The notes under the pieces: model-generated
Told to the model about the DNA's origin: nothing
Databases searched by the model: none
The model's input: only the letters and a program-made list of their open reading frames with translations
Assembly (NCBI GenBank): GCA_965212115.1
Contig: CBDBUR010000001.1
Coordinates: 641,395 to 705,394, forward strand
Source of the DNA: Alphaproteobacteria bacterium
Lineage (GTDB): Bacteria > Pseudomonadota > Alphaproteobacteria > JAPOUT01 > G958296285
Direction: 5' to 3'
Length of the DNA: 64,000 bases
Part shown: piece after piece, positions 4,094 through 53,567 of the stretch
Layout of the letters: every line of letters begins with the position of its first letter
Numbering within the stretch: position 1 is the first letter of the stretch
Program-made: the position numbers and the translations under genes

Positions 4094-4118
4094 AGCTCAC
4101 TCGCCTCATTGTGAGTTC
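4093..4118. terminator. possible bidirectional terminator hairpin between convergent lepA and giant gene 1
   Basis: Imperfect inverted repeat GAGCTCAC (4093-4100), 10-nt loop, GTGAGTTC (4111-4118). This gives an 8-bp stem with one G-U wobble. There is no strong U-tract on the plus side. The minus-strand side is followed by CUAGUCCUCUUUC. The 50-bp gap between the convergent stop codons leaves little room for anything else. Confidence 0.25.
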
Positions 4119-4143
4119 ATCAGCACACAACAACCTAAGAACT

Positions 4144-30101: not shown

Positions 30102-33100
30102 TTAATCCGTCTGGGTGAGGCATTGCGTGTTCTGACACGGAAAATCAACATCAAAACGCGGCGCGCGCAGCGAATTCCTCTTCAAATTAAAGATCTTTAC
30201 AGTGCCAACTCCTCTTTTGCCGTTGTCGATCGCAAGCACACGGCTCGCCGCCAGCGAAGTGCCTGTCCCCAAAGTCAGAGAAGCGCGCGCTTCGATAAAC
30301 AAATTGTGTGCTCGTGTTGAACCCGCCGTGAGCGTCAGCGCTCTGCCCGACACTTTCACCGTTTCGGCGTCAAAATTCAACGCCTCGGTTGCCTCCACCG
30401 TCAGCGCGCTGGCCCCGGCGTCGATGTCGCTATTGACCGTTATGCGACCTGCTCTTAACGCTGCGGTGCCCTCAAACTTCGTTGCGCGCGCCGGTGAAAG
30501 CACAAGCTCACCTCTAGGTCCTAAATCATGCTCGCCTGTGCCAAAAGTGATATCCCCAGATCGCGTCGTCAAACTCAGTTTTTGCCCCTCTGTCACCATC
30601 CAGTCTTGAACCCGCTGTGATCTCCTTGTTGTGATCGACACATCTTTCGACAAATCGAATGGCCGCGTCGCGCTAAATTCATCTGCTTGCTCAAGAGACA
30701 CATGACTAGCTGTTAAACTCGGCGCGGTCTTGCCGTCATGCGCCGGCGTCTCCACTTTGCCCGACCCGTCCGCACCCGCTCTGATTTCAAGCACACGCCC
30801 TATCCCATCCAGCGCAATATCATTATTGATCCTCACATCACCACGCGCATCAATGGTCAGATCATGCGCCGATGATGAAATCATCGTCGTGCTCGAGCCG
30901 CTTGTCAAAGCAATCGACGCAGCTGCCAAACGCCGCTCATCACCTTCACCCGCAAAAGCCATCCCGCGCGCCGCCGATAAAGCCAGAGCGCCTGCGCCGA
31001 CTTCAATATCGCGCTCAACGTCCAATGATCCATCCGAAGTAATTTTCAGATCAATGCCTGAACGCAAAACCATCCAATCTTGAACAGCTTGGGCATCGTT
31101 GCCATCATAATTAACTGTCAAAGATTCCACTCTTCGCGCGAACCTCACTGGCGGTGCTGAATCAAAAACCTCCTCATCCTGCGACAAAGTCACCGAAGCC
31201 GCTGCCAGCGTCTGAGATGGCCGATCGCGGCGGTCACGGCGGAAATTGAGCACCCCGACATTATTCGCCTGTGTGTTTCGGCCTGCGGTCAGGACCAGCG
31301 CACCTGAACCTAGATTGATGTCTGTGTCAACATTCAAATCATCTGCAGCCTCAACTGTCAGGCTTCGGTCGCTGCCGCGCGAAGGCGCGCGATCAGACGC
31401 CAGTGTAACTTCTTTGCCGCTTAAAATAATCTCCCGTGATCTGCTAAATCTCAACTCACCATTTCTAGCCGCCGTGCCCGCCATCAAAGCGAGATCGTTC
31501 ACCGTCATAATATCCACATCCAGCGTCAAATGGCGCCTCGCCTCAATGGTTACGGCTTGACTGCCTGTCATCGGTCTCATTGCGCGGCCATTATTGTCAG
31601 TGGCATCCGCGCTCAGAGTGACATGATTGCCTTTCAATATCGTCGCAACAGATGCGCCCACATTGATTACGCCTATATTCTGCGCGCCAAATCCGGCGGC
31701 CAACACTAGATTCCCTCGACCTGCTGTTAACTGACCATTCAACGACAGATCTCCCGTTGCGCGAACGATCACATTGCCCGTCCGGCGATGCGCACTATTT
31801 GGTAGCGTGGCATCTGTTGTCAATTTGATATCATGACCACTCAAAGTGATTGCGCGGCCACTAGAAAAGCGCAAAGCGCCTGTCGTGGAATCACCCATCC
31901 CCGCCGTCAAGGATAACGCGCCCGTCACCAAAAGACTCATATTGACATGGATGTCGCGCATCGCAATAGCTTTCAAGCTCGATGCGCTCTGATTTTGCGA
32001 AGGCGTCCTATCAGCTGCAAGCATGATGTTCATGCCACTCAATATTCTCTCACCAGCCAAAATCAACACGCCTGTATTCGCGCGCATCCGCCTGCCCGAA
32101 CGCCTCCTGCCAAAACCCGCTTCCAATCTTAAATCTCCTGCTCCCGCATTCAGATCAGCCCCAACATCAACATTGAACGAAGACCTGATTACAACATCGC
32201 CGCTGCCGCGCGGCGCTGAACCATCTGCCCGCAGGGTGATCGTGTTTGCATCCAATGTTGCTGCTGTGTCAAAATTGATTGTTCCGGTATCCGCAGCCGA
32301 CAACCCTCGCCCTGCTTCAAGTGTCAAGTCTCGTCTGCTGCTTCGTGCGCCTCTTCGAGTCGTCACAAGAATAAGATCACCTCTGATATTTAAGTCGCGC
32401 GCCGCACGAATTACCAGATGAGCATTCGATCTCACCGCCAAAGCCGCCATCCAAGATTGAAGCGTTTGATCCATCTGTGACGTCGTGATCAATTCAATCT
32501 CCCTCACATTGGTTCTAAAGTCTCCAAAAGGATCGTCCTCCGCATACTGATCTGACGAAATCAACGTCAGAGCGCGCCCCCGCACATTCTGAGATGCCCG
32601 ATCAGCCGTCAGTGTGAACTGACGTGCCGTCAAAATAACGCGCCGCGACGGACTCAAACGCATCTCTCCTGTCTCAACAGCCATCCCTGCCCCCGCCATC
32701 AAAGACAGCGCGCCCGTCATCGAAAGATTCGCATTCAACATCAGATGACGCTGCGCTTCAATCTTTACATCTTGATTGAACAACGGCGGCGTTTTGATCG
32801 CGCTACCGCCATCATCGAAGCCGGGATCAGCGCTCAAAGTGATGTCATGGCCGCTCAATGTGATCGCCGCGCCCCCCATAAAACGAATTACGCCCACAGC
32901 ATCAGGCGCCTCGCCATAACCGGCCTCAAGCGTCAAATTCCTCTCTCCAAGATCAATCGCGCCGACCACCATCACATCGCCCGCCGCACGAACCGCTAGA
33001 TGAGCGCTTAAATGCGCGGCTAAGCCAACAATCCAATCGTAAACGGGCTGATCGACAGACGATGTCGCAATAAATTCAATTTCTCTGACATCTGGGTTTG

Positions 33101-36100
33101 CGCCTGCAAAAGGCGTTGTGGCCCAAACCTCCGACGAGCGCAAAACAAGCGGCTGACCACTTGCCGTTGGCTTCATGGCTGCCGTTAAACTCATCGTCCC
33201 GCCGGTCAAAGCTGTCATGCGCTGCGTGTTGAAATTGATTGCGCCGCCATTGGCCGTTAGCCTCAAATCGCCTGCGCCCGCATTGATGTCGCTGTTGACA
33301 TTGATGCTGCCTTCAGCCGTGATCGTTATACTGCCTGCGCTTTGTAAAGGTGCGAGATCACCCATCAGCGTGATCATATTGCCGCTCAAATTCCGATCAC
33401 CTTTCAAAGTCAGCGCTCCAATGTTTTCTTGTCTCCGGCCACGTGCGCGCCTTGTGCTAAAGCCTGCTTCAAAAGTCAAATCGCCTGTGCCTGCATTGGC
33501 GTCGGCGCCAACATTGAGATGGCGCGCTGCCCTGATCGTCACATTCACATCATTGCCGTGCTTGAGAGTCCCATCAGCCTCCAAAGTCACGCTGCGGCCA
33601 CTCACAATCGAAGCTGCTGTGAAGTCGATCACGCCTGTGCTGCCATCACCCAGACCTGCCTCAAAAATCAAATCCCGCTCAAACACCACATCGCCTGCAA
33701 TAACAATGTCTCCCGCAGAGCGAACCGCCAAATTAGCTTGCGACCTCGCTGCCAAACTGATCATCCAATCATGAACTTTTTGAGCCTCATTCGCCATCGT
33801 GATGAACTCAATCTGATTTATACGGCTGAGCCGTGCTCCAATGAAAGGGCTGGCTGCCCAAACAGACGCCGAACGCAAAGCCAGACCATATCCTCGCACA
33901 CGCGGTGTGCGGTCGGCATTCAAAGTTATTGCGTCGCCCGAAAGCGTGACCATCCGCGCGGTGCTGAAGCGAATCTCGCCTGTTGATGTCCCTGTGCCTG
34001 CCGTTAAACTCAAATTGCCTGCGCCCGCATCAATATCCGCATTGATCAACAAATCTGCCCACGCTGAAAGAGCCACAGCTACATTATGGGTTGTTGGTGT
34101 GCCATCCGCCGTCAACGTTATGTTATTCGCGCTCAAAGAAACCTCATTTGTAAAATGGATCGCGCCGGTGCTCTTGCCCTGTCCAGCCTCAAGCGTGAGA
34201 TTGCTGCTCGACGCTAGTTCAATATCTCGATCAACAATAATGTCTCCTGCTGAGCGAATGGTCAAATGCGCATAAACATTTTCATTTTCTGTCAGCATCA
34301 CCATCCATGGATAAACCCGCTGCACAGCAGACGCCGAAGTGGCAGCAAATTCGATCAGGCGGCTCAACACCACATGATCGCCAAACGGGTTTTCGTGAGC
34401 AAATGCCGCCGCCTGCGTCAGACGGATCACCCTCGCCGTCAGCGCGGCACCGCTGCTCACAATCGCGCCGCGACCTGCTGTCAGCCTGAGTTCACCGCGC
34501 AAAATCCGGCGCCCAGCGCGGCGGACAAGATTGATCGCAGCACTTACCTCCAAAGCCCCTGCAGCAATGACAGTCAAAGCTTGACCGCTGCCACGCGGCA
34601 GTTCGCCAGAAACTAAAGCAATATCATGGCCGCTCAATGTCACGGCCGCGTTTGTCTTGAAATTCAACGCGCCGCCCGCTACCACGCTCACATCCCCTGC
34701 GCCTGCGATAATGTTTGTGTTGATATCGACATTCCCCAGAGCCTCAATCGTCAGGTTTTGATCGCTTGCCGCCGACGGATTGCGCGCTGCCGTCAAAGTG
34801 ATGTTGTTGCCGTTCAATCTCGATGTTCGCGTCAAAACGATTCGCCCTGTCGTGCGGCGCCTCGTCGCCACTGCTGACAAAGTCAGATCGCCAGTGCCCA
34901 CATTGATGTCTGCGCCAACAACTAAATTGCCTGATGTCGCGCTGATGGCAATGTCGAAATTATTCACTCTGCTCGCGCTCAAGGCCGCCGCCCCGGTGGA
35001 CAATAAAGCAATGTTGCTGGCTCGCAAAGTTATTGACGGGTCATCGTCTTCAGCCATGAAGTTGATCGCGCCGATGCCATCATCATAGCCCGCCTCTAAA
35101 ACCAAATTCTGACCGCGCAAATCAATATTTGTGCTCAACAAAAGATTGCCGCCGACGCGCACCGTCAGATGACGACGCCGACGCAGTTGACGATGCGATG
35201 CCAAATCCAGCATCCAAGTTTGAAACGTTTGATCCGCGCTCGACGTCACAATGAACTCAACCTGTGTCCCGCGCAAGGTGATTCCGCTAAAGGGACTCGT
35301 CGCGCCAAAAACATCTTCCTGTATCAAGCGAATGACACCGGCAGCGAAAACGCTTCCACTGCCTTCAATCGCTCCGCTAATTGTATTCAGCGTTAAAGCC
35401 CCTCTGCCGACATTAAGATTGGAAGACGCTGTTAAAGTGCCCAAAGAGGTGATCATCAAATTGTGATGGCTAGCGCGCGGCGATGCGTTCGCATTCAACA
35501 CAATATGATTGCCTTTCAAAGCGACTGCGTGCCGTGTGCTAAATTGAATTACTCTCGCCACCAATGTTAAATTACCGCCTAAATTATTCCCTGGGGCAAT
35601 ATCGATGTTTGTATTGATATTAACGCTGCCCCGCGCGACGATCATCAAATCAGCTGCATTTTGATCAGGTGCTGTGTCGGCTGTTAAAGTGATATCATCA
35701 CCGCTCAAGCGCCGCGCGCCCACAAAATTTATCGCGCCCGTGTTCGACACTCTCCTGCCCCTCACGCGCCGCGCGCCATTGCCGACCGTGAGAACCAAAT
35801 CACCCGCGCCGGTGTTGATATCAGCTCCAATAACAGCATCACCACGCGCCGTGATGCGCAGAGTCCGGTTGCTCGCCTGAGGTGCTGCATCCGCCGCCAG
35901 CAAAATATCATTGCCGCTCACAGAAACATTGCGCGTCGCACTAAACTCGATAGCCCCGCCCGCCATCAAGGCCACATCGCCGACACCAGCGTCGATGGCC
36001 GCACCAATGACCAAAGCGCCGATCGCAGAGATCGTCAAAGCACGATGGCTTGCCCGCGGTGATGCATCGGCGCTCAATTTAATCGCCGCGGCGCTCAAAA

Positions 36101-41800: not shown

Positions 41801-44800
41801 CGATGGCGCCCTCCTCAACATCCAAAGTGAGCACCGCGTTCACCCCGCTTAAAGTGATATCGTGGACCGTCAGTGTGCTTGCGGCCTTGAAGGTGAGATC
41901 AACATCGGATTCTACCGCGCTGTTCAGCGTGATGCTGTCGGCAGATATTGTCCGCACCCCAAAAAAAACAATTCTGTAGCCGGCCTCGAAAACCAAGCTG
42001 TTTGCGCCAAGATCAATATCACGGACAATCCTCAGCTGGGCAGAAGCTCCGCTCATCGCAATCGTGAGGCCTCTGCCCTCGGCGAACAGCCAGCCATACC
42101 GATGATCGATCAACTGCCGCTCAACACGCGGTGCTAAAGTGATTGTCAAATTATTGGCGGCTTCGATAATGAATGGAAAATCAGGCCTAAACTCTGTGCC
42201 TTGTGTTAGACTGAGCGTCTCAGCGATGAGTGTCGGCGTCGCGCGCGACGATATGTCGCCCGAAGCCGCGCTCAGACTTAGAGCCGCGGCGCCAGTCGAA
42301 AGATCATTATCAAGCGTCAAAGCGCCTGCCGCATCGATCGTCAGCGCAAAATCGCCCGGAGTGAAACCGCTGCCATCATCAAACCTCCCAATCCTGATGC
42401 CCTCCGCGCCGCGCGCCGTGAGGCCGATATTCCCGCCCGACAATGAACGCGCTCTTTGCGCTTCGCCTTCAATGTTGATCTGTGCCGCAGACAAAATAAG
42501 ATCGCCTGCGCCGATGTCGATGTCGCGCCGAATCACAATCTCCGCCGCGCTCATCAAAGACAAAGACATCCCGCTTTGAACCATCCAGTCATGGACAATC
42601 TGTGTCTCTTGAGTCGTTAACACAAGCGCGCCCACAAAACTCAACGTGAATAAATCATCGGCGAAAGCGGCGTTGTGCGTGAGACTGACCGTCCCTGCCG
42701 TGAGTTTGCGCGCAGTGCTGTCAGCGATGATCAAGCCGCTGTCTGCCGTCAAGGTGAGCTTGCCCGTGCCAATATATATGCCGATATTGAAACTGCCCGT
42801 GAGCGTCACATCACGCGACGCAATAAGCGTAAGGTCAGTATTATTTGCATAAACCGCACCTGAAAACGCAATATGATCAGCACTCAACGCGCGCGCGCCG
42901 CTAAAAGTGATTCTTCTGCTGCCATTCAAAGCGAGCGCGCCGCCGATCGTGATATCTGAACCGATCTGAACTTCGCTGGTTGCGCTCGTCAAAGTGAGGC
43001 CGCCCGCCGCACGATTATTGATCCGTGTCTCGACTTTCACCACACCGCCTCTGCTCGTGAGTGCCAAAGTCCTGCCATCGGCGATCATCCAATCGTGAAC
43101 CGCCTGATCGACACTCGTGCTGAGAGTGAGTGAAGCGACATCCATCAATGTCATCGGTACGCGCGCAGCGAATTCTTCGTTTTGCGCAATATCGAGACGA
43201 GGCACATTGATGATCGGAACCACATCGCCTGCAACATCGAAAATGGTCGAGCCATCCGCAAGAATGATCGGACCGGCAGAAGCGCCGACCGTGTCGGCTG
43301 TGAGCGTGAGCGCGCCCGTGCCGATGATCGTCATGCCGGTCAGGCCACCGCCATTAAGCGTGAGCTGGCCTGCGCTCGCGACGATCGTCAAAGAACGCGC
43401 ACCGAAATCAATCGCGCTCGCAATGAGGGTGACGACCCCCGATTTGATCGTCAGCACCGCATCTTCGGGAATCTCACTGGAAAAAGTGATCGCGCGCGCA
43501 CCGGCATTCAACATGATGCTTTCTATCGCACTCAGTATGCCATTTGGAAAATCAGCGCGCGTGAGCATGATTTCAGCGCTGCCATCGCCTCTTTCAAGAA
43601 TATCCGGAACTATGATCGCCCATTCAACCGACTTTTGCTTTTCACCGCCTTCATAAATAATGACAATATCCGTGACCGCTGCCTGATCGCCTTGCTCATT
43701 GATAAGAAAATTCGCAGGCCGATTTTCGGCTTCAACCGGAAAAAGCGCGCCGTCTTGAAATAGCTGGTAAAAACTCGCTGTGATATTCGTCGCAAGCCCC
43801 TGGGTAAAGCTGATGACGCCGCCGTGACGCCGACCTTGTCCGGCTTTGAGCACAAGCACACTCCCTCTGACATCAAAGCTCGCGCTGTCGATCGTCAAGT
43901 TTTCATCGGCCTCCAAAGTGAACCTTTCGATGCTGCTAGGAAACCTCTCGTAATCGGCGTAGAGAACTAAACCGCTTTGCGCGTTCAATGTGCTGGCAAT
44001 CATGCCCACTTCCACGGTGCCGGTCAGGCTGATCTCCCTCGCCGAGAGCGTGAAAGAATCCCTCTCCGGAAAGACCCGAACGCCATCATTCGACGAATCA
44101 GCGAAAAAAATTTCATCGCTCGACACGCTCAACGCACCCGCGCCGAGATCAACATCACCGCCAAAAATAACTCTGGACACGATATGAGGATCGTCATTAC
44201 CCACGATAACGGTGAGATCATTGTCTCCTGTGATGTTGCCCATCAGGTAGATATAACCCGCTTTCGCTTTGACATCTTTGGTCAAGGCAATCATCGGCGC
44301 GCGCAAAATAAAATATCTGATGCCGCTCGCTGACAGATCGCGTCCGAGCTCGATGCGGGCTGATGCGCGGGCGTTCAGAATTAAAGCCTCAAACCCTGTC
44401 GCCGGATCCATCCAATCATGGACGGGCTGAACTTGATCCGTGCGCGTCGTAAGACTTAATAAATTGACAGATGAAGCCAAAGAAAAAATTCTCTCTGTGC
44501 CAAACGAATCATCCTGCGTCATCACGATGTGCGAGGTTTTCAGCTCTGGGAGCGCGCCGCCGCTGCCGTCAATTGCTGGTGTGATGATATTGCCGACTGT
44601 GCTGTCGCTGATGCCCGCAGCCAAAACAATCTGCCACCGCAAGAAAGACTCGGAAGCCGGAGGCGAAGGAAGAGCATCAATGCTGTCATTGAGCGTCAAA
44701 TCGTGCTGCGCCAATATAAAAAGACTTGTGTTGACTGTATTCGATTTGCTGATCGCGCCCGTGATCGTGATGTGGCCGCCGCTGAATCTCGCCGTGCTGG

Positions 44801-47800: not shown

Positions 47801-50800
47801 CGGTGAGACTCAGTCCTCGATCTTCTTCATTCAACATCCAGTCGCTCACGGGCTGGGTGCCGGAGGCGGCCGTTGTCGTCAGCGTCAGCTGGCCGACGCC
47901 CGTAAGATCGAATATCCCGCCTGCAAACAAACTGCCTTGCGTGAGCGAAACCAATGCCTGCGAAGTCAGCGTCGGTATCGTGCCATTGCCAAAGATGCTG
48001 CCTTGTCTTGCTACTACGACAAATTCACCATCCGTTCCATCGTCGCCGTTGATTTTAATCGCTGCCACGCGGCTCTCGAAGCTCACATCGCCGGTCATTG
48101 CCGTCAGAGTGAGATTGACGCCATCAGACGACGCAACATGAGTGCCATTGAGAATTATCGTAGCGCCTTGCAATGCCAATGTCATGCCGCTTGAGCCCAA
48201 GAAATCAATCGCTGTGCGGCTATTCAAAGTGAGCGCGCCACCGATCGTGATGTTTGCGCCGATCTCGATTTTATTGATCGCGCTGGTCAAAGTGAGAGCA
48301 CCAAAACTTTCATCATTGATCACCGCTGCGTCCGCGACAAAAACTTTGCCGCTCGTATTGGTGAGCGTCAAATCCCGGTTGGCGGCGAGCATCCAAGAGG
48401 GATGAACTCGCTGCCCCGCCACCGCCGTTTTAAGAGTGAGCTTGGCGACAGTTCCAATACCGTCAGGATGGCTAAACTTGAACGGCGTGGTTGAAGCAAA
48501 AGCGCCGCTTTGCGTGATCGAAACACTGGGCACATTTAATCTCGGCGCGCCCGCGCCGCTGCCTGCCTCGATGGCCATCGCCTGCAATTCTAGTCCGTGC
48601 GCGCCAATCGGATTGGCCGTGCCAAAGATTCGCAAGCCATCGACACCGCCATCGAGCGTGATCACACCGCCCGCAGCGATGAGCTTCAAAACACGGCCAC
48701 CAAGATCAAAACTCGCCGCAGTAATCAAAATAGCCTGTGCAGTCAATGTGATCACCGCATCGTCGGCGATATCATCGTTAAAAGTGATCCCATGCGCTCC
48801 AGCATTGAGCACAATGCCTATCGAGCTTTCAATCCTGCCCGCGCCATCGCTCAATGCGCCGCCCTCAAGATCGCTAAGCCCAATCTCTAGCGCCCATCCC
48901 GCGCCCAAAGTCCGCGTGAGGCCGGGCAGGGTCAGCCATGACGGCAAGGCTGTGATCTTCGGGATATGGCGATCGTCTCCAGTAAAAAAACCTTCCGGCA
49001 CAATCGCGCCGAAGCTCACCCGCTCCGGCTGCGTCATCGAGAAAAACGTCTCATCCTGCGTCAAAGTGATCGACGAAGCCGTCAGCGCGAGCAGCGCGGC
49101 ACTAAAAGAGTTTGCAAAAGTGATGGCACCGATTTGCGCCGCCTGTTCACCTTCGCCCGCCGTCAGCCTGAGCACACCCGCGCCGATATCAAAGCTTGCC
49201 ATATCTAAGCTTAAATCGCGGCCTGCCTTGATCGTGATGTTCTGACCATCGTGGGTTGTCGCATTGGAGGTCAGGCTGACCATATTGCCAGACAGCACGC
49301 GCGCGCCACCGCTGAATGCGATCGTCATGCCCTTCAAAGTAAGGTTGCGAGTGATATTGATGTCGCGCCCAATCGTGATCGTCGTGTCGGTCGCGGTGAA
49401 AGAAAAAGATCGGTTGAGAACCGCCGCACCGTCCGCCGTGCTGCCATTCAACATCCATGCCTTGACGCTCTGCGCCGCGCTGCCATTTGCCTTCAGAGTC
49501 AATAAAAAAGCCTGATTCGGCAGAATGAACAGATCATCAGCAAACGTGCCGGTCTGCTCCAAGGTCAGGCTTCTGGTGGTCACGGTCGGGGCGCTGTTGC
49601 CCTCTTCGGTGAAGTTCGTTGTGGTAATCGCGCCATGCGCCGCTGTGACACGAATCAATCCGTTGGGATTATAGATCGCGTTGGTTTTGAAGTTCAACGT
49701 CGCGCCCGACAAAGTGCGCGCAGAGTTAGAGCCAAAATCGATCGAGCCAGCCTTTAAGATGATCGCGCCGCTGCCGACATCAATGTTCTGATGAGAGATG
49801 ATCTCACAGCTTGCGCACGTAATGAGCGTCAAATTCATGCCGCTGACACCCATCCAGTCGTGGAAGATTTGATTTTTTTCGGTGGTAAGCTCTAGCGCAG
49901 CGGCGGTAAATGAAAATGCAGGTGTGTCTGGATTTTCAAACGCGGCCTGCTGAAGAAGCTTCACCGTCGCGGCGGTGAGTATGCGAGTCGTCGTGCCATT
50001 TCTAGCGATTGTGCCGTTGGTGATGGCGGCATGATTGTCGCCTCTGGCCGCCATCAGCGTGAGGCGGCCCGCAGCGCCGACATTGATGTCGTTTTTAATC
50101 GTTAAATCGCTATTTGTTGCAGAGATGGTCAGATGGATATTATTGCCATTTGCGGTTATTTGATCAGCCGCCGCGATATCGACGCTGGCACCCTGCAACA
50201 AAGTGACTCCTGTGCCAAGCTCAATAGAGCTCACGCCCGTCTTCAAAGTGAGCACGCCGCGTGTTTTGATGTTCGCATTGACGGCAATCTTGCCGAGTCC
50301 CGAATTAAATATAAGATCGGCATCACCAACCTTGCGCGCTGCGTTTGGCTCGCCATCGGCGACGATTGCGCTGTCGATCGTTATGCTGCCATAGAGGCGC
50401 GTCTGGTTGGTTAAAGTCAGATCTCGATTGAAGCCGAGCATCCAATCTGCCACATTCTGATTATTTGCTGAGACTGTCAGCTCGAGCGCGCCTGCATCTC
50501 GAAAAACAAAAACTTCTGTAGAAGAAAACTTGCTCTGCTGAATCAGCTTGATCGTTGCTGCGGTCAAAATCGGAATGTCGTTCGTTGAGGGCTTGCTGTC
50601 ATTGCTCGCGGTCAAGATAGCGCCTATGGTGAGGAGCGATAAGCTGTCGCGCGCGCCCGCGCTCAGAGTGAGAACACCTCTGCCGATATTGATGTCGGCA
50701 TATAGGCTCAAATTGATTGGCCGCGCATCGCCGAGCGTGGCGATGGTCAGATCATGATTGTCGCTTGTCGTAATTTCCGCTGCAGAAATGGCGACCGAAA

Positions 50801-53567
50801 CACCGCTCTGGCCGATGATCTCGCGCGCGCCGCCGATAAACGCGAGCGTGGCATCGCCCGCGCCATCGCTTCTGCCAACATTGATCCCGCGTGCGCCTTT
50901 GATGTCGGCCGAAAGCGTGAAAGTGCCGCTAGATATGATGGCCTTGAAGTTGCGACCACCGAAATCAATATGCGTCGCAGTGATCGTCAGAGCAGGTGCT
51001 TCAAGCGTTATTTCATCTGAACCGGAAAAGTTCACGCTGTCCGTTGCATTGATGGTCAGAGGCTGCTCCCCTGTTGAAGCAGCAGGCAGCGTGACGCGAT
51101 GACCACTGAATGCGCGCCCGCCGATCACATTCATCGCACCATTGCCTAAAATGAGATCGCCCGCGCCGGTCGTGATACTGCCGCTGATTGTCAAAACACC
51201 GCTAGCCGTGACGCACAGATCAACATCGGCGGGAACAAAAGCGCCGCTGCTGACAATTCCCGTTGTGATATGATTGCCATCGAAGCGGGTCGCCGTGAGG
51301 CTGATCGCTGCGCCTGACAATTCGCGCAACCCGCCCGCTACGCCAACGATATTGATTTCTGTTCCCGACAGAGCAAGATCGCCCGGCCCGGTGTTGATGT
51401 CGCGATTGAGCGTGATCGCGCCGCCGCTAGTGAAACTCAAACCGCGACCGGGTGCGATCATCCACCCATAGACCTCATGCGCTATCTTTGTGTTTGCGGA
51501 CAAATGCAGCTCATCCACCGCCAGCTCCAATGGAAGGCCCGTGGGGCTAAATTTTCCTCTTTGCTCAAAGGTTGCTTTCTTTGCGGTCAGCGTGAGGCGG
51601 TCGCCGTTTTCTGGAACGCCAATGTTACCTGCCTCGCTGATGCCGGTTTTCATAATGATTTCATTGTCCTCCCAGAGGATATTGCCGCCCAGCACGATAG
51701 TGCGATGTGCGGCAAGCAGCAGTATGAGTCCGCGAGGAGCATCATCATCTATAACCTGCGAAACTGCGCCGATGAGCCGGATGTTTTTGCCCCTTAACTC
51801 AATGCTGTTGGAGAAAAAGATATTTTGACCTTCAAGCCTAATGTCTTTATCCTTGCCAACACTCATGTCCTGCTCAACAGTGATTGAAGACCCTGTGGCA
51901 ACCAGATTCAAACTTCTATTTTCAACCACCATCCAAGGGCGAACGGTCTGATTCCTTGTTGTGGTCAAGGATAATTTTTGAACTGAGGAATCAAAATTAA
52001 ATAAAACCTCAGAAAACGTGCGATTTCCTTGTTTGAGATAAATCTCGCTTGCAGTCAGCGTTATGTTTTCGCCGGTGATCAAACGATTTGCCGTCATCCG
52101 CAACAGGCCGATGCCGACATTAATCGGCTGATTGACCTCTATATTGCCTGCAGTGACCCGCAGCGTCAAATCGATATTGTGAGTATTGGTAATCGCAAAA
52201 TCGACAATGAGCCGCTCGGTTGCCTCAAGCCTCAACGTGCCGCCCGTCCACGCTGAGATCAAAGACGCGTTGATGTAAAGTGTCTGAGGTCCTGGCAAGA
52301 GGGAATCTATTGGAAGGTTCGTTAACTGATTCGGGCCAGACCATGTCGCAGTTCCTGGGGGAGGGCTAGATGGCCCTTGTTCGACAATTAAAATCCTCCG
52401 CGGATCCAGCAATAACGCGCCGTCCACGCCGACATCAATGCCAGCAAGATTGACCGCCGCGAGATTCACTTTGCCCGAAACTTCAGCAAAGCCGTTGGGC
52501 GCTTTGATCTTGCCATGAAACCATGTTGTCTCATCCGACCAGACAATCACACGGCCTTTCTCTCCGGCGTCGAGCAGCGCATTGGGTTCAACGAGGGTGC
52601 GCTGCGCGTTTTGAACCGCCGCGTTGCCGCCTTTGTAATCGCCGCCGACGAGAATCTCGCTCGCTTTGATGCGCGCGGCGCTCTTGACTGCGACATAGCG
52701 GCCTGTGGTTTCAACCTTTTCATCGGCCTCAACTTGCGCCGACACTTCGTTGATCCCTTCGCCGCCGCCAGAAAGATACACAACACCGCCGCGGCGCTCC
52801 AGCTTCGTCGCCTTGACAACGCCGCCAACCGATACGACATTCGCTCGAACTGCTTGCGCCTCTTGTGCCGTGAGTTTCACGATCCCACCTTGCGCTTCAA
52901 CTCGTCCTTCATTGACAAGCGCAGCGCCCACCGCGCCTGTTTTGACCTCAAATCCGACAAGACCTCCAGCAAAATCCACCGTAAAGGCCTCACCTGCCCC
53001 CAACGCCACATCGCCGCCGGTAGAAGTGATCGTGCCGGTATTTTCAACCCGAACCGCCGCGAGCACCGCGCCGCCGGCCCCTGCCGTGATCGTCCCGTGA
53101 TTGACAACCGCACCCCCCGTACCATCAAGCATCCATTTTGACCTCGTAATGCCCTTTATACGCGCGCTTGTCGCGAGCAGGCCGCCGACATTAACGACAG
53201 CGCCGCGACTAAACTGGACGCCGTTTTGATTCTCTATGATCGTGATACCGTTGGAGGTATAACTTCCAGAGATATTCGTTGGCCCTGCGCCATCTATACG
53301 AATCAGCAACCGCGAGGCCGCGCGCGGCTGATGAGCCTGTGCGCTTTCATGTTTCGCAATATTAAAGCTCGACCACTGGGTCGCGAGAAAATCGCTGTTT
53401 TGATGGATGTCGGTGTGGCTGCCCGACTGTTCGATGTATCCTGAGCCCTGCGTGATTCGCCCACCCTGCGGCATAGCCATCACCGCCGCGCTCAGCATGA
53501 GCGCGATTGCAAAACTGCCTAATTGCATCAAGAATTCTATACGACCAAATATCAACAAGAGATTCAA
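30102..53567 (-). CDS. giant two-partner-secretion exoprotein (TpsA / filamentous-haemagglutinin-like), 7,821 aa, paralog of gene 1
   Basis: Uninterrupted 23.5 kb ORF. The TTG start at 53567 is preceded by a strong Shine-Dalgarno (gAAGGAGaggagtTTG), and an alternative ATG lies at 53528. Signal peptide (..RIEFLMQLGSFAIALMLSAAVMAMP), then a TPS domain (QGGRITQGSGYIEQSGSHTDIHQNSDFLATQWSSFNIA..NGITIIENQNGVQFSRGAVVNVGGLLATSA). The central region is a distinct set of ~330-400-aa repeats carrying a recurring A(R/N)ILSG..(V/I)(S/N)L motif. The C-terminal ~2,900 aa are homologous to, but not identical with, the gene 1/3 C-terminal module. TAA stop at 30102-30104. Confidence 0.85.
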   Translation of the reverse strand: MNLLLIFGRIEFLMQLGSFAIALMLSAAVMAMPQGGRITQGSGYIEQSGSHTDIHQNSDFLATQWSSFNIAKHESAQAHQPRAASRLLIRIDGAGPTNISGSYTSNGITIIENQNGVQFSRGAVVNVGGLLATSARIKGITRSKWMLDGTGGAVVNHGTITAGAGGAVLAAVRVENTGTITSTGGDVALGAGEAFTVDFAGGLVGFEVKTGAVGAALVNEGRVEAQGGIVKLTAQEAQAVRANVVSVGGVVKATKLERRGGVVYLSGGGEGINEVSAQVEADEKVETTGRYVAVKSAARIKASEILVGGDYKGGNAAVQNAQRTLVEPNALLDAGEKGRVIVWSDETTWFHGKIKAPNGFAEVSGKVNLAAVNLAGIDVGVDGALLLDPRRILIVEQGPSSPPPGTATWSGPNQLTNLPIDSLLPGPQTLYINASLISAWTGGTLRLEATERLIVDFAITNTHNIDLTLRVTAGNIEVNQPINVGIGLLRMTANRLITGENITLTASEIYLKQGNRTFSEVLFNFDSSVQKLSLTTTRNQTVRPWMVVENRSLNLVATGSSITVEQDMSVGKDKDIRLEGQNIFFSNSIELRGKNIRLIGAVSQVIDDDAPRGLILLLAAHRTIVLGGNILWEDNEIIMKTGISEAGNIGVPENGDRLTLTAKKATFEQRGKFSPTGLPLELAVDELHLSANTKIAHEVYGWMIAPGRGLSFTSGGAITLNRDINTGPGDLALSGTEINIVGVAGGLRELSGAAISLTATRFDGNHITTGIVSSGAFVPADVDLCVTASGVLTISGSITTGAGDLILGNGAMNVIGGRAFSGHRVTLPAASTGEQPLTINATDSVNFSGSDEITLEAPALTITATHIDFGGRNFKAIISSGTFTLSADIKGARGINVGRSDGAGDATLAFIGGAREIIGQSGVSVAISAAEITTSDNHDLTIATLGDARPINLSLYADINIGRGVLTLSAGARDSLSLLTIGAILTASNDSKPSTNDIPILTAATIKLIQQSKFSSTEVFVFRDAGALELTVSANNQNVADWMLGFNRDLTLTNQTRLYGSITIDSAIVADGEPNAARKVGDADLIFNSGLGKIAVNANIKTRGVLTLKTGVSSIELGTGVTLLQGASVDIAAADQITANGNNIHLTISATNSDLTIKNDINVGAAGRLTLMAARGDNHAAITNGTIARNGTTTRILTAATVKLLQQAAFENPDTPAFSFTAAALELTTEKNQIFHDWMGVSGMNLTLITCASCEIISHQNIDVGSGAIILKAGSIDFGSNSARTLSGATLNFKTNAIYNPNGLIRVTAAHGAITTTNFTEEGNSAPTVTTRSLTLEQTGTFADDLFILPNQAFLLTLKANGSAAQSVKAWMLNGSTADGAAVLNRSFSFTATDTTITIGRDINITRNLTLKGMTIAFSGGARVLSGNMVSLTSNATTHDGQNITIKAGRDLSLDMASFDIGAGVLRLTAGEGEQAAQIGAITFANSFSAALLALTASSITLTQDETFFSMTQPERVSFGAIVPEGFFTGDDRHIPKITALPSWLTLPGLTRTLGAGWALEIGLSDLEGGALSDGAGRIESSIGIVLNAGAHGITFNDDIADDAVITLTAQAILITAASFDLGGRVLKLIAAGGVITLDGGVDGLRIFGTANPIGAHGLELQAMAIEAGSGAGAPRLNVPSVSITQSGAFASTTPFKFSHPDGIGTVAKLTLKTAVAGQRVHPSWMLAANRDLTLTNTSGKVFVADAAVINDESFGALTLTSAINKIEIGANITIGGALTLNSRTAIDFLGSSGMTLALQGATIILNGTHVASSDGVNLTLTAMTGDVSFESRVAAIKINGDDGTDGEFVVVARQGSIFGNGTIPTLTSQALVSLTQGSLFAGGIFDLTGVGQLTLTTTAASGTQPVSDWMLNEEDRGLSLTADSAKIAIKRNIITGANRGLILSADQIQIAGSETEARILSGRSVQITAPHGVATGQFGRNNVFVAALVGNFDLSLMASGVSNGVSLDLNADVDLGRRGSATLTLEGQTLTPRAGSVITAAVVSITQQDALFAEGALYDLSAVGTLKLITHAGLSTVQNVQNWMLTPQARNLSLTSDGVVRIGDDIAITGDFMLKARGVDHASRNLMIEAGDISIDSATLIDLDDHSLVVRASGALTLAANINASAITLTTGAGAIAVIGARDLTALTIRLAQVNLFGSAAPFAGFNGTTTLELTTSAAAGSQEVYDWMAVNDRALSLSSARPVVIDDDIELGRGALILSAARINIGGAIGRARILSGAAVSLTARAGIFIGTITRDNLLGEISAFDKAVGDDFDLTISAQGDLIVAGDVDIGAGALRLSAGDAISRGSAVRVLRAASVILTHDVAFADELFNLPASVGALTLTVNGTVNGETTQGVHQWMLNDQAARGSPVADRAFVLTADSAVIEIKSDIKTGARDFTLSAAAIQIIGAANGSARILSGNVVSLIAVGGINTGTFNKITGDFDTTGGNFNLEIIARGNLTLGGNVNVHDGALSLVAGRADFRGEIDFGMGRVITAISVLLEKGGAVFPAVSSELAAFQNSAAAALEEDDIIVVYTGLNGEQTDEDWFVLRLAENFMLQTQNDKDLVVPGTGFIERSGKIIFNAGAGDISFAATSGAVILRANVIEITAGSFNLGGDRLTIVVTGSGGALTIAADITEASVVDVGVATLAFTGADRVISGMGDLDIVLTAGNITTDDGHSLTILSGGDLTLNSDINIGGGALTLTADSDQDEADGALIFGAATPTLTAEKVHLTQDVAFGGDLFSLAFVSLLELDTDEAQTVLAWMVKDGRGLDLASEGVITIRSDIELGSGDLTLAGLRIRVEGAANNRRLLTGNEVNLSGDIAIGVISSDATFTAVKDGEGNFSLTITADGVLTLGGTIDVGGGDLILTGMDGISLSLASTARFSGGHITITGAISKSNTVNTSLFILAQHDLTLNDSIDALPSPPASESFLRWQIVLAAGISDSTVGNIITPAIDGSGGALPELKTSHIVMTQDDSFGTERIFSLASSVNLLSLTTRTDQVQPVHDWMDPATGFEALILNARASARIELGRDLSASGIRYFILRAPMIALTKDVKAKAGYIYLMGNITGDNDLTVIVGNDDPHIVSRVIFGGDVDLGAGALSVSSDEIFFADSSNDGVRVFPERDSFTLSAREISLTGTVEVGMIASTLNAQSGLVLYADYERFPSSIERFTLEADENLTIDSASFDVRGSVLVLKAGQGRRHGGVISFTQGLATNITASFYQLFQDGALFPVEAENRPANFLINEQGDQAAVTDIVIIYEGGEKQKSVEWAIIVPDILERGDGSAEIMLTRADFPNGILSAIESIMLNAGARAITFSSEIPEDAVLTIKSGVVTLIASAIDFGARSLTIVASAGQLTLNGGGLTGMTIIGTGALTLTADTVGASAGPIILADGSTIFDVAGDVVPIINVPRLDIAQNEEFAARVPMTLMDVASLTLSTSVDQAVHDWMIADGRTLALTSRGGVVKVETRINNRAAGGLTLTSATSEVQIGSDITIGGALALNGSRRITFSGARALSADHIAFSGAVYANNTDLTLIASRDVTLTGSFNIGIYIGTGKLTLTADSGLIIADSTARKLTAGTVSLTHNAAFADDLFTLSFVGALVLTTQETQIVHDWMVQSGMSLSLMSAAEIVIRRDIDIGAGDLILSAAQINIEGEAQRARSLSGGNIGLTARGAEGIRIGRFDDGSGFTPGDFALTIDAAGALTLDNDLSTGAAALSLSAASGDISSRATPTLIAETLSLTQGTEFRPDFPFIIEAANNLTITLAPRVERQLIDHRYGWLFAEGRGLTIAMSGASAQLRIVRDIDLGANSLVFEAGYRIVFFGVRTISADSITLNSAVESDVDLTFKAASTLTVHDITLSGVNAVLTLDVEEGAIGNGGAVRALAAGALTLAQADLFASEQRFTFAAKALELKIEARNPRINIADPQVIWPWMVMAHHDFTLDSVGAILISGNHITGARDINLKGTEIRFEGDPNNPRILSGNNISLHATAADEIRISALPRIDGSNVAGDFDLTIIASGALTLMNDISVGSGALILAGETINVDRTAFALTAGSIKLAQDRAFTSIAPFNLTLSGARPSLEIETGADQTIHSWMIDGITVHNQTLSVTSTGQITISNNIDTGTGALTLRGSRLSITGGGALSGRTITLNGAITSEVALIVRATGTPANALTLESGVVSIAAGDLNALSLSAAMGGISLRAPRLILSGYKVALTGAIATPQGISTNLTIIAQHNVRINNEVNIRRGALVIAAGRAEGSGDGQTGEILWPVNVRENMQTNQESVVRQRLTRDLSTTPAMTMIAALVRLTQDGALFSDERPVAFQNEAGDVIRPRIVFDGTRIQAVMSSWYDIVLNAAYSRIPRRSFVVPTANIRRSQSITLNAGARGTIKFRGFGPIVLAAPQITITARRMDIGRRALTIMADRGTLTLNANIIGTSGDIFLSADEIAFVGNVNRSVTGGNVRVAAANVTSAHNVALIAYHDLTIGADFALADNLTLTAGQDRRVRRQTIKTQGALIFLGTRMISAKEITLTADAAPDKEQASSADLILTAHDDIHVRAAIHVGGGALTLIASGNITSINTPTLTAASINMTQNGSFDATVFDLADIVSSLTLETQAAQTVHAWMIAAANNRSLSLASTHEIIVAGDVETGTGDLSLSGSALTFNAAATLSGMNISLTGAATADNTALTFEAMGILTLNHDVAAGTGALTLTGAQEISLGGSRQTLSGNAITLTGAVSTTASTNLTMRALRNLTIEAINLDNGALVLTAGDGSTIGDITFRGTPTIAARSVRLEQDSQFDEAAPPANVIFAIGGNNGKPEIDDGITTIAAPMAWFTVGQPTNFLRGEDNRDAQGNLLVQLEAGNAIRRFRSITLDAGAGAIAFSGIGAIILEARTVKIIAGDIDLGTRVLTITASGGTLTLNTDLTSTANITLSAEKIVFAGGARTISGAAVSLTSMSAITGAGDVIMIAAGTLKIAADFALRYELSLEAGAAAATGALMFSGARSLSGSAIRLTADTAPISPSNSDLTLIATGNINVAAAINLGSGALTLTASRIVATGAPLVTAARVALTQNQVFGGGTTGSLTLMTNSLSLFSRAVHDQAIHNWMIASGRDLAVRSGRDIRITAAMNNFGAGDFTAEAARGIVFTNATIIEAGDITLTTGANNSISTGDRALTLTAQGDITINADMAIGAGDLSLTVAGAINFAKMRPIKLSGNNIRLVANMMPEASDQNVSIRARANLTLGGSFDAGAGNLSLEAGTSDTHGGLNFSPGAVMLSGNVITLTGNQVPSPSSQDLTVIARDDININTDLDIGMGNLTLEAGAGASIGALQFQTNAATKLQGNNITLIADAMPRVGQRSVTIEAQGNLTVSSSLNTGRGDLTLKAGLAAGAGEGSLFLAPRASIQLLGGDILLEGDGDSTAVGTMPHDLTIRARGNLDIYTDVNLLRGTRQPDENISSNEDETSELLLEAGLGSETGLVRIFGDRALTANRIILRQDGEVFGARAPADLTADELVLSSMSTADQAYHSWMGVSDRSLSLESKGGIVLSENIDLGTGALTLRASRRTIRFSSLMFDRNIRLAGGDITLAAARTITTNDRNLEIVAAGDLRIDANINTNTGTLNLEGRTIMFGGNVRTRFVDGGAIMLTAMNAPTDVIHRAVAIRAKNDLRVRGHLNTGVGDLALIAGYKGVGSLIFDGETMLNGNHITLTGDDAVDTDGKVLMPMASDSAVRVIARRGLNINVNINVGTGALTLEAGAGTGNRDVGALQFRTNVATFLSAAAIKLSADASPRASHRALTISAIGALVIGAAIDAGVGDVALMAGGAIEFSATRNVSVSGNDILLAADAAPQASNRTLRITARGDAVIGADINTGAGDLVLTVGNGARRVRGRRVSNTGAINFVGARRLSGDDITLTADTAPDQNAADLMIVARGSVNINTNIDIAPGNNLGGNLTLVARVIQFSTRHAVALKGNHIVLNANASPRASHHNLMITSLGTLTASSNLNVGRGALTLNTISGAIEGSGSVFAAGVIRLIQEDVFGATSPFSGITLRGTQVEFIVTSSADQTFQTWMLDLASHRQLRRRRHLTVRVGGNLLLSTNIDLRGQNLVLEAGYDDGIGAINFMAEDDDPSITLRASNIALLSTGAAALSASRVNNFDIAISATSGNLVVGADINVGTGDLTLSAVATRRRTTGRIVLTRTSRLNGNNITLTAARNPSAASDQNLTIEALGNVDINTNIIAGAGDVSVVAGGALNFKTNAAVTLSGHDIALVSGELPRGSGQALTVIAAGALEVSAAINLVRRAGRRILRGELRLTAGRGAIVSSGAALTARVIRLTQAAAFAHENPFGDHVVLSRLIEFAATSASAVQRVYPWMVMLTENENVYAHLTIRSAGDIIVDRDIELASSSNLTLEAGQGKSTGAIHFTNEVSLSANNITLTADGTPTTHNVAVALSAWADLLINADIDAGAGNLSLTAGTGTSTGEIRFSTARMVTLSGDAITLNADRTPRVRGYGLALRSASVWAASPFIGARLSRINQIEFITMANEAQKVHDWMISLAARSQANLAVRSAGDIVIAGDVVFERDLIFEAGLGDGSTGVIDFTAASIVSGRSVTLEADGTLKHGNDVNVTIRAARHLNVGADANAGTGDLTFEAGFSTRRARGRRQENIGALTLKGDRNLSGNMITLMGDLAPLQSAGSITITAEGSINVNSDINAGAGDLRLTANGGAINFNTQRMTALTGGTMSLTAAMKPTASGQPLVLRSSEVWATTPFAGANPDVREIEFIATSSVDQPVYDWIVGLAAHLSAHLAVRAAGDVMVVGAIDLGERNLTLEAGYGEAPDAVGVIRFMGGAAITLSGHDITLSADPGFDDGGSAIKTPPLFNQDVKIEAQRHLMLNANLSMTGALSLMAGAGMAVETGEMRLSPSRRVILTARQFTLTADRASQNVRGRALTLISSDQYAEDDPFGDFRTNVREIELITTSQMDQTLQSWMAALAVRSNAHLVIRAARDLNIRGDLILVTTRRGARSSRRDLTLEAGRGLSAADTGTINFDTAATLDANTITLRADGSAPRGSGDVVIRSSFNVDVGADLNAGAGDLRLEAGFGRRRSGRRMRANTGVLILAGERILSGMNIMLAADRTPSQNQSASSLKAIAMRDIHVNMSLLVTGALSLTAGMGDSTTGALRFSSGRAITLSGHDIKLTTDATLPNSAHRRTGNVIVRATGDLSLNGQLTAGRGNLVLAAGFGAQNIGVINVGASVATILKGNHVTLSADATDNNGRAMRPMTGSQAVTIEARRHLTLDVDIMTVNDLALMAGTAARNGELRFSRSREIILSGKEVTLASDRAPSRGSDRSLTVEAADDLNVDTDINLGSGALVLTAGRNTQANNVGVLNFRRDRRDRPSQTLAAASVTLSQDEEVFDSAPPVRFARRVESLTVNYDGNDAQAVQDWMVLRSGIDLKITSDGSLDVERDIEVGAGALALSAARGMAFAGEGDERRLAAASIALTSGSSTTMISSSAHDLTIDARGDVRINNDIALDGIGRVLEIRAGADGSGKVETPAHDGKTAPSLTASHVSLEQADEFSATRPFDLSKDVSITTRRSQRVQDWMVTEGQKLSLTTRSGDITFGTGEHDLGPRGELVLSPARATKFEGTAALRAGRITVNSDIDAGASALTVEATEALNFDAETVKVSGRALTLTAGSTRAHNLFIEARASLTLGTGTSLAASRVLAIDNGKRGVGTVKIFNLKRNSLRAPRFDVDFPCQNTQCLTQTD
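52400..53477 (-). other. signal peptide plus TPS secretion domain and conserved N-terminal extension of gene 2
   Basis: Residue-by-residue similarity to the gene 1 N-terminus through ...DETTWFHGKIKAPNGFAEVSGKVNLAAVNLAGIDVGVDGALLLDP (about 52400-52425). Beyond that the genes diverge; in gene 2 a Pro-rich linker (EQGPSSPPPGTATWSGP) follows. Confidence 0.8.

Follow-up and report, generated by a model that had tools for sequence, protein, structure and literature searches.

A 64-kb stretch of an Alphaproteobacteria bacterium assembly (contig CBDBUR010000001.1, positions 641,395 to 705,394; hereafter the window) carries three giant minus-strand open reading frames (ORFs), g1, g2 and g3, and a Trp-Met (W-M) motif recurs through all three proteins. 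The question raised by this locus is what the motif is: a known haemagglutinin repeat, an interruption of the fold, a binding site, or part of an uncatalogued module. Our analysis of the window points to the front end of a ~100-residue beta-helix module that builds most of these giant fibres, themselves headed by two-partner secretion (TPS) domains, with the motif acting as a structural joint; we regard this as probable rather than assured. The genes concerned, with lengths in amino acids (aa), are listed below.

4144-29967, minus strand: g1, a TpsA-type exoprotein of 8607 aa (ORF; PF05860 at E 5.9e-17)
30102-53567, minus strand: g2, a TpsA-type exoprotein of 7821 aa (ORF; PF05860 at E 1.1e-17; TIGR01901)
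52761-53474, minus strand: TPS secretion domain of g2, residues 32-269 (PF05860, 65.3 bits, cut-off 33.5)
53949-63998, minus strand: g3, a third giant paralogue, of which the C-terminal 3349 aa are covered (ORF running off the window end)

The core pattern Q.[VILFTAY]..W[ML] was matched 22, 23 and 7 times in g1, g2 and g3, respectively, against 0.03-0.1 matches per protein in 200 shuffles, giving 52 matches in total with fewer than 0.3 expected. The WM dipeptide likewise occurs 26, 26 and 10 times, with fewer than one expected. When all Trp contexts outside the TPS domain were listed, 24 of 44 Trp residues in g1, 25 of 41 in g2 and 8 of 15 in g3 lay within the motif Q-x-phi-x-x-W-M, and the remainder belonged mostly to a second, 'W-F' element or to a 'VW' just upstream of the C-terminal modules.

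A hidden Markov model (HMM) of the module was built from 60 W-M contexts, and matches running from model position 6 or lower to position 80 or higher at E<1e-8 were counted as full modules. The model recovered 65 full-length modules of ~100 aa, 28 in g1, 27 in g2 and 10 in g3. One g1 copy, at residues 5794-5903, is degenerate and has lost its Trp.

4468-27657, minus strand: 28 modules of g1, 27 with W-[ML] (HMM; W817, 1223, 1434, 1628, 1824, 2003, 2443, 2645, 2810, 3164, 3610, 3770, 3939/3941, 4138, 4327, 4733, 4870, 5372, 5554, 6270, 6835, 7150, 7340, 7597, 7800, 8256, 8427)
30423-52064, minus strand: 27 W-M modules of g2 (HMM; W545, 702, 1042, 1238, 1371, 1725, 1910, 2084, 2229, 2401, 2807, 3052, 3493, 3661, 3826, 3979, 4141, 4670, 5153, 5576, 6118, 6421, 6601, 6845, 7039, 7498, 7656)
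32223-35354, minus strand: C-terminal module subtype of g2 (PF...[IL]E[FL]..TS...Q.V..WM), residues 6072-7115 (W6118, 6421, 6601, 6845, 7039)
within 53949-63998, minus strand: 10 modules of g3 (HMM; W96, 596, 1021, 1586, 1901, 2091, 2348, 2551, 3007, 3178)

The module consensus reads L-T-A-x-x-V-x-L-x-Q-x-x-A-F-x(4)-P-F-x-F-x(6)-L-x-L-x(3)-T-x-A-A-Q-T-V-H-x-W-M-x(3)-G-R-x-L-S-L-T-S-x-G-x-I-T-V-x(3)-I-x-L-G-x-G-x-L-T-L. Because the C-terminal half of the model (R-x-L-x-L-x-S...I-x-I...G-x-G-x-L-x-L-x-A...I-x-F) recurs many times by itself, we take it to be an ordinary coil unit and the N-terminal half to be the true 'punctuation'. Paralogous modules within the window share a mean identity of only ~26%, yet the W is invariant and the M and F are at least 90% conserved, which argues for selection rather than recent duplication.

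These results can be set against a first-pass annotation of the window, made from the sequence, which had reported the motif in all three proteins; the core matches, far above the ~0.1 expected by chance, bear this out. Nothing in the three proteins exactly fits its literal consensus, PF-x(10-12)-[IL]EF[IV]TTS-x(4-5)-Q-x-V-x-x-WMV. When relaxed to a form corresponding to the C-terminal subtype above, it does fit 3, 4 and 3 copies in g1, g2 and g3, but these all lie within the final ~1,500 aa of their protein (in g2 the matches begin at residues 6394, 6574, 6819 and 7013). The sequence features that it placed after the motif, R-x-L-x-[LV], GD[LV]x[VI] and LEAG-G...G-I-F, are recovered as the C-terminal half of the ~100-aa module. 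The proposed period of ~300-430 aa does not hold in general: in g1 and g2, successive W lie 133-716 aa apart (median 200.5), and 32 of the 52 distances are 260 aa or shorter. Across 674 modules of the wider family described below, the distances have a median of 212 and fall into two broad modes, 100-250 and 300-450.

Plus-strand ORFs of 200-290 aa end at the motif, and a reading of them as real overlapping genes was considered. All 13 of the ends listed in the first-pass annotation, which had explained them as a mirror image of the motif, are stop codons a few bases from a minus-strand W-M codon pair, each arising from the reverse complement of x-x-W-M where codons of the type ...CA[TC]-GAC-TGG-ATG are read backwards. 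A plus-strand stop in any frame was found within 18 nt, over W-M and the four upstream codons, at 42 of 72 W-[MLI] sites, and it is the minus-strand proteins that have homologues and a TPS domain. We consequently give almost no credence to overlapping genes.

We then compared the module with catalogued repeats. Besides the TPS domain, no Pfam family exceeded its cut-off in the ~19,700 aa of g1, g2 and g3, with g3 lacking any Pfam match, and in an NCBIfam scan of g2 TIGR01901 was the sole match. A sub-threshold G8 match in g1 (20.9 bits, cut-off 22.9) was disregarded. Neither Fil_haemagg (PF05594) nor Fil_haemagg_2 (PF13332) was matched in the three proteins at E<=0.01. In addition, 49 non-overlapping Trp-centred windows of 161 aa were scanned singly against Pfam with the limit relaxed to E<=10. 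Ten of the 49 showed faint Fil_haemagg matches (best E 0.051), and the PATR repeat (PF12951) gave one chance-level match (E 5.5, first window). When the windows were reduced to 54-aa pieces holding the motif only, Fil_haemagg was found in 0 of 49 at the same threshold; 62-aa pieces of the coils after the Trp gave 1 of 49. A search of the module profile against PDB chains returned nothing below E 0.19.

The identity of the motif with the known haemagglutinin repeats (Fil_haemagg, Fil_haemagg_2 or the R1/R2 repeats of FhaB) would accord with the faint matches in the 10 windows and with the resemblance of the G-x-G-x-L-x-L-x-A coils to coils of the type found in filamentous haemagglutinin (FHA). 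Against it stand the lack of any significant repeat match in the ~19,700 aa (Pfam for g1, g2 and g3, NCBIfam for g2), the near-absence of matches in the motif and post-Trp pieces, the negative PDB search and the narrow reach of the module profile described below. This identity is accordingly very improbable, in line with the first-pass annotation, which had not recognised the motif from the FhaB R1/R2 repeats or the Pfam haemagglutinin repeat. Since the Fil_haemagg test came out negative, we conclude that the motif is uncatalogued in Pfam and NCBIfam.

To establish how widely the module occurs, its profile was searched exhaustively with HMMER against 1.84 billion representative proteins; a word-indexed search had yielded a single 182-aa fragment. 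The exhaustive search retrieved 196 proteins (E<=1e-3), of which 93 reached E<=1e-30; many are 2,000-7,800 aa long with 20-86 matched stretches, which bears out the suggestion that the motif defines a repeat family. Conservation was measured in 674 modules of 109 representatives, from other genomes, that have at least one full module. The W, whose conservation the earlier note had proposed to check, is present in 100% of these, followed by M (97%), Q(-5) (96%), L(+31) (95%), F(-30) (94%) and Q(-34) (87%). A calcium-binding reading of the D-I-D-L-G-x-G-D segment was rejected, since its Asp positions are not conserved family-wide.

To gain insight into the fold of the module, AlphaFold2 models of one and of two consecutive g2 modules were obtained.

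41895-42872, minus strand: two consecutive modules of g2, residues 3566-3891 (W3661, W3826), modelled with AlphaFold2

The single-module model (residues 3566-3726, 42390-42872, 161 aa; 49 paralogues aligned) reached a predicted local distance difference test score (pLDDT) of 93.4 and a predicted template modelling score (pTM) of 0.88, and the two-module model (17 paralogue pairs aligned) a pLDDT of 91.3 and a pTM of 0.89. Both are uninterrupted all-beta solenoids with coils of 22-26 residues, in which the sole helical parts are one-turn helices at model residues 95-97 and 260-262, corresponding to x-W-M (D-W-M). The motif fills two successive coils. Along the sequence, a TVSLTH strand is followed by an NAAFADDL loop with the conserved Phe, an FTL strand, an ALVLTT strand, QET, a two-residue QI strand, VH, the DWM turn, VQSGM, an SLSLMS strand and an EIVI strand. 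The W-M helix occupies the corner at which the very short Q-x-V strand leads on to the full R-x-L-x-L-x-S strand. Alternate, in-phase strand positions are taken by the conserved V, L, Q, F, L, L, Q, V, L and L, and the out-of-phase positions are variable, a pattern expected of residues that would face inward in the modelled solenoid. In the modelled copy the two conserved Gln lie 25 residues apart and F(-26) lies 26 residues from the W, each about one coil (the Gln spacing is 25-29 overall); given this spacing, the Gln pair and the F/W pair should each stack. Foldseek searches against the PDB gave no significant match (E>=0.13, template modelling score ~0.2) and back the fold class only, the weak matches being mostly beta-solenoids: tapirin, HxuA, HpmA, EtpA, HMW1, and antifreeze and ice-binding proteins.

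The models also bear on a role as cap, hinge or domain boundary, by which the element would divide the fibre into separately folding beta-helical segments. Such a role would suit the short helix and truncated strand at the motif, and large aromatic residues are typical of beta-helix end caps. The TPS domain itself has an aromatic cluster at its N-terminal cap (PMC5422565). However, the models run continuously through one and two motifs at a pTM of 0.88-0.89, the strands restart at once with the same coil length of 22-26 residues, and the block pLDDT of 97-98 across the motif and just after it is the highest of the models. We therefore consider a cap or boundary improbable, and the earlier idea of Trp/Met caps interrupting the helix finds no counterpart in what is the most confidently predicted part of the structure. 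The models instead suggest a specialised two-coil joint.

The class of the proteins is indicated by their N-termini. Both g1 (PF05860, 62.9 bits) and g2 carry the N-terminal TPS domain that defines TpsA proteins (PF05860/TIGR01901), the g2 match to NCBIfam TIGR01901 scoring 43.5 bits against a cut-off of 29.1; the N-terminus of g3 lies beyond the window. Ahead of the TPS domain, where a TpsA protein would have its Sec signal peptide, hydrophobic stretches were seen by eye at the N-termini of g2 (...GSFAIALMLSAAVMAMPQGG) and g1 (...SSLSAVVMTLTLGTAVGAAPQGG). TpsA passengers are long beta-helices, sometimes made of repeat modules, that are exported via TpsB (PMC5422565, PMC3756990, PMC11463764), and a beta-helical passenger is found here in the AlphaFold2 all-beta solenoids and in the weak Foldseek matches, which include TpsA secretion domains. 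The TPS domain is the one indication that g1 and g2 would be exported by the TPS route.

We propose that the W-M element acts as a joint in the following way. The two Gln would stack as a ladder, and F(-26..-30) and W would stack in the same bulged corner, so that an aromatic/Gln joint starts each super-repeat. Its role would be structural, fixing the strand register, as the first-pass annotation had also suggested, and providing a local folding nucleus every ~7-9 coils (~4 nm) along a fibre of ~340-370 coils, which at ~23 residues and 0.48 nm per coil would have an estimated length of 160-200 nm. Many near-equivalent coils could in this manner fold vectorially, without slippage, while emerging from the TpsB pore. 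Such a role would be in keeping with the established picture of TpsA passengers as long, TpsB-exported beta-helices (PMC5422565, PMC3756990).

Several points weigh against this proposal. Joints lie 133-716 aa apart, an irregularity for which a strict ruler or register device would have no need. The AlphaFold2 alignments consisted of paralogous repeats of the same proteins and may inflate confidence, and it is spacing, strand phase and conservation, as placed on these models, that indicate that W and M would be buried, that F would stack on W and that the two Q would form a ladder. The folding-nucleus function is something that we only infer. No gene for a TpsB (Omp85/POTRA) transporter, which usually shares the operon of its TpsA, was found in the window, whose only non-TpsA genes are pheT and lepA, nor in related loci within 10 kb upstream of the TPS start (L002 and L008) or in either flank (L009); some TpsBs serve several TpsAs or are encoded elsewhere, and other gene arrangements exist (PMC5422565). 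Finally, position -2 from the W is fairly conserved (H 49%, Q 15%, Y 13%) though out of phase with the core, which could hint at a surface site.

113-2293, plus strand: pheT (ORF list and annotation)
2294-4093, plus strand: lepA (ORF list and annotation)

This last point leads to another explanation, in which the W-M corner would bind a ligand at the surface, as an adhesive or lectin-like site present 25-30 times per fibre, for multivalent attachment to a host, prey or partner cell. The W-M is placed in a turn and not in a strand, the residue at -2 is polar or aromatic, and Trp is a common sugar-stacking residue. By analogy, the C-terminal repeat modules of EtpA jointly bind glycans (blood-group A; PMC11463764), and a comparable function may be imagined here. 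Yet besides W and M the conserved residues are in-phase hydrophobics and the two Gln, which is core-like and not pocket-like, and the residues beside the W (-1, +2 to +4) are variable. Distant relatives, moreover, keep the W, swap the M for A and change the upstream half wholly. We judge a binding site unlikely, and retain the structural joint as the preferred reading of the motif.

The modules are embedded in larger repeats. Whole-protein self-BLASTP showed nothing off the diagonal, and the repeats were seen with chunked BLASTP. In g1, offsets of 1126-1208 aa, and of twice that length, delineate three units at 35-43% identity. Within each unit there are five W-M module types that can be told apart, together with one W-F element, one G-D-I-L-W motif and one pair of Cys. 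In g2, a higher-order repeat of ~425-490 aa is confined to the C-terminal third. The 3' parts of g1 and g3 additionally share a stretch with 94.9% protein identity over 2864 aligned positions, against ~32-43% for the rest of the paralogues, which points to a recent gene conversion or duplication event, or perhaps to a sequence duplicated in the assembly.

16318-26970, minus strand: g1 higher-order repeat, three units of ~1,130-1,210 aa, residues ~1000-4550 (chunked self-BLASTP)
4193-12307 and 53980-62085, minus strand: 8.1-kb (8,115-bp) direct repeat in the 3' parts of g1 and g3 (blastn, 99.1% DNA identity)
minus strand: 'W-F' element, 11 copies from the Trp-context listing, with Trp codons in g1 at 27025, 23413, 19891, 16453 and 14644 (W981, 2185, 3359, 4505, 5108), in g2 at 48936, 45801, 43620, 40383 and 38928 (codon 38928-38930; W1544, 2589, 3316, 4395, 4880) and in g3 at 63003 (W332)

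The W-F element starts much like a module (L-x-Q-D-x-x-F...P-A-x-F-x-L), continues as [VI]-x-Y-x-G...W-[FLAY], and is followed by a Pro-rich stretch of ~35-45 aa ending in S-I-x-L-[DN]-A-G. The N-terminal part of three copies (g1 5063-5165, g2 4346-4376 and 4830-4851) matches positions 1-31 of the module HMM. The element, which may be an extra-helical excursion, also occurs in distant relatives as ...Y-T-G-x(3)-Q-x(2)-H-D-W-F.

The family was then examined for its sources. Where these were checked (ENA/NCBI), the carriers were metagenome-assembled genome (MAG) or metagenome contigs of 0.4-1.9 Mb, and the two genomes that could be placed both fall into an alphaproteobacterial lineage. One of the proteins found, P0003, is g2 apart from its start residue. 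Two others lie on the same 711-kb contig as the window: P0002 is a fourth giant paralogue of 7703 aa whose TPS domain is nearly identical to that of g2, and P0010 is the C-terminal part of g3, called as a 4937-aa protein without a TPS domain. The contig therefore carries at least four giant TpsA genes, and a frameshift or truncation of g3 may lie upstream of the window. When genomes were scanned with the family TPS domain, a single species representative came up that has modules downstream: the 1.61-Mb chromosome OZ243043.1 ('MAG: Alphaproteobacteria bacterium'), matched at 71% identity. The scan also returned five TpsA loci at only 28-35% identity, from Gammaproteobacteria, Alphaproteobacteria, Rickettsiales and Rhabdochlamydiaceae; no module was seen in the TpsA sequence covered there (785-2,682 aa), and they were not counted as members. 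LepA is 88% and 83% identical to its counterparts in two MAG relatives and 75% to another, whereas among named taxa (Tepidamorphus, Parvularcula, Parvibaculum and others) its identity does not exceed 68%. By these sequence comparisons the host would belong to a deep, undescribed alphaproteobacterial lineage with related contigs of 1.6-1.9 Mb.

Orthologues elsewhere (L001, L002, L008 and L009) are split over several ORFs or frames. In L002 (9914-20990), for instance, a 911-aa ORF is followed by a piece of more than 2789 aa in another frame, and ERZ25069326 contigs at 1x-12x coverage carry many short calls. The splits reflect either long-read indel errors in repetitive genes or pseudogenisation.

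More distant MAG-derived giant TpsA proteins detected by the same profile (P0023, P0044 and P0059) share the overall architecture, the W-F element and the half of the module after the Trp, W-[AM]-[IV]-x-x-[DG]-[KR]-[DN]-L-[ST]-[VI], followed by G-x-G-x-L-T-L coils. They differ in having another TPS-domain subtype and, as the upstream half, F-I-Y-T-G...I-P-S-W-A in place of L-x-L-x-T...Q-x-V-x-x-W-M. Because they carry this W-A variant (F-I-Y-T-G...I-P-S-W-A-[IV]-x-x-[DG]-K-[DN]-L-S-V), Trp-punctuated modules reach beyond the W-M clade. In P0044, near-identical units of ~240 aa occur in tandem.

A more far-reaching possibility is that the Q...W-M joint and its W-A and W-F variants form a register-and-ratchet device enabling type Vb export of fibres of 5,000-8,600 residues, and that these fibres, organised as coil, ~100-aa module and hyper-repeat of ~0.45-1.2 thousand aa, are the signature attachment organelle of the uncultured lineage with contigs of ~1.6-1.9 Mb, encoded by tandem genes of at least 87 kb on one 711-kb contig. 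We offer this as speculation that has the odds clearly against it.

In kind, as judged from their sequences, g1 and g2 are TpsA fibres like FhaB, HMW1 and EtpA, and the picture of TpsA proteins is unchanged. FhaB is ~3,600 aa long, which makes g1 and g2 2-2.5 times longer. The R1/R2 repeats of FHA, the subject of Kajava et al. 2001, reportedly have 19 residues. Like FhaB/FHA of Bordetella pertussis, the present proteins combine an N-terminal TPS domain with a long shaft, a right-handed beta-helix whose short coils abound in G, L, T, S and A, and are predicted to form an extracellular fibre. Unlike FhaB, they have no significant Fil_haemagg match anywhere in the shaft and no adjacent TpsB, and their coils are grouped in ~100-aa modules headed by the invariant Q...W-M joint. 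The coils are also longer, at 22-26 residues against 19 in FHA (PMC5422565).

In EtpA of enterotoxigenic E. coli, a TPS domain is similarly followed by larger repeat modules that continue the beta-helix (PMC11463764). EtpA has four such C-terminal modules, which are its functional (binding) part and glycosylated lectin units (PMC11463764), whereas g1 and g2 have ~27-28 modules with no sequence similarity to them in the PDB profile search. Neither a glycosyltransferase gene nor a TpsB gene was found beside g1-g3 in the window. CdiA also combines a TPS domain with a filament of beta-helical repeats (its FHA-1/FHA-2 regions). An assignment of the present proteins to CdiA or polymorphic toxins was rejected: g1, g2 and g3 contain no pretoxin (VENN/PT-TG) or toxin Pfam domain, no immunity gene lies downstream, and the C-termini instead end in F-D-[IV]-D-F-x-C-x(3-4)-C.

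Very long (>10,000 aa) repetitive parallel beta-helices are also known from Chlorobium chlorochromatii, a bacterium that lives attached to a partner, in the giant haemagglutinin-like proteins Cag_663 and Cag_665 (bioRxiv 10.64898/2026.03.19.712371). Together with the EtpA modules, they are the closest parallels in concept. Both proteins are proposed type-1-secretion substrates with Fil_haemagg-type motifs and predicted calcium sites, the cation sites recurring every 249 +/- 57 aa (bioRxiv 10.64898/2026.03.19.712371), compared with a median of ~200 aa between joints here. The present proteins, by contrast, lack a Fil_haemagg match, carry a TPS domain and have a Trp-Met/Gln joint in place of the predicted cation site.

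What is already known, then, is the kind of beta-helix building block; what is new is a family of Trp-punctuated beta-helix repeats, uncatalogued and hierarchical in organisation, in a rare lineage. If the joint reading is true, the ~19,700 residues that Pfam leaves unannotated outside the TPS domains could be described by one ~100-residue model, which could be deposited as a new repeat family, and giant tandem TpsA genes would be flagged as a trait of an alphaproteobacterial lineage. The family would further provide a natural test case for register-keeping and extracellular folding of extremely long beta-helices, given an invariant Trp-Met/Gln joint every 7-9 coils in paralogues otherwise ~25% identical.

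Some minor features of the locus were also recorded. The start of g1 lies 134 bp downstream of g2, and its end lies 50 bp from the convergent lepA. Related genes have other neighbours (positions 1-10000 each): aldolase, glutathione S-transferase, type I restriction-modification enzyme, short-chain dehydrogenase/reductase and DsbD in L002, and ilv/leu genes in L008. In L009, giant genes stand in tandem as in the window. The C-terminal F-D-[IV]-D-F-x-C-x(3-4)-C sequence of g1, g2 and g3 lies a few residues before the stop (4177-4212, 30120-30155 and 53967-53999). Cys is otherwise scarce (0.1-0.2%), and in g1 nearly all Cys come in close pairs, from C-x2-C to C-x9-C (552/555, 733/736, 971/979, 1160/1165, 2365/2375, 3553/3560, 4253/4259, 4673/4681, 4890/4893 and 8592/8597), which probably form small disulphide loops. 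Plus-strand GC skew of -0.2 to -0.35 and AT skew of +0.1 to +0.22 were observed at 4001-16000 and 54001-64000. The skew is limited to the 3' (C-terminal) parts of g1 and g3, is about zero over the central repeats, and probably mirrors the amino-acid make-up of the C-terminal module subtype, which is rich in G, A, S, T and R.

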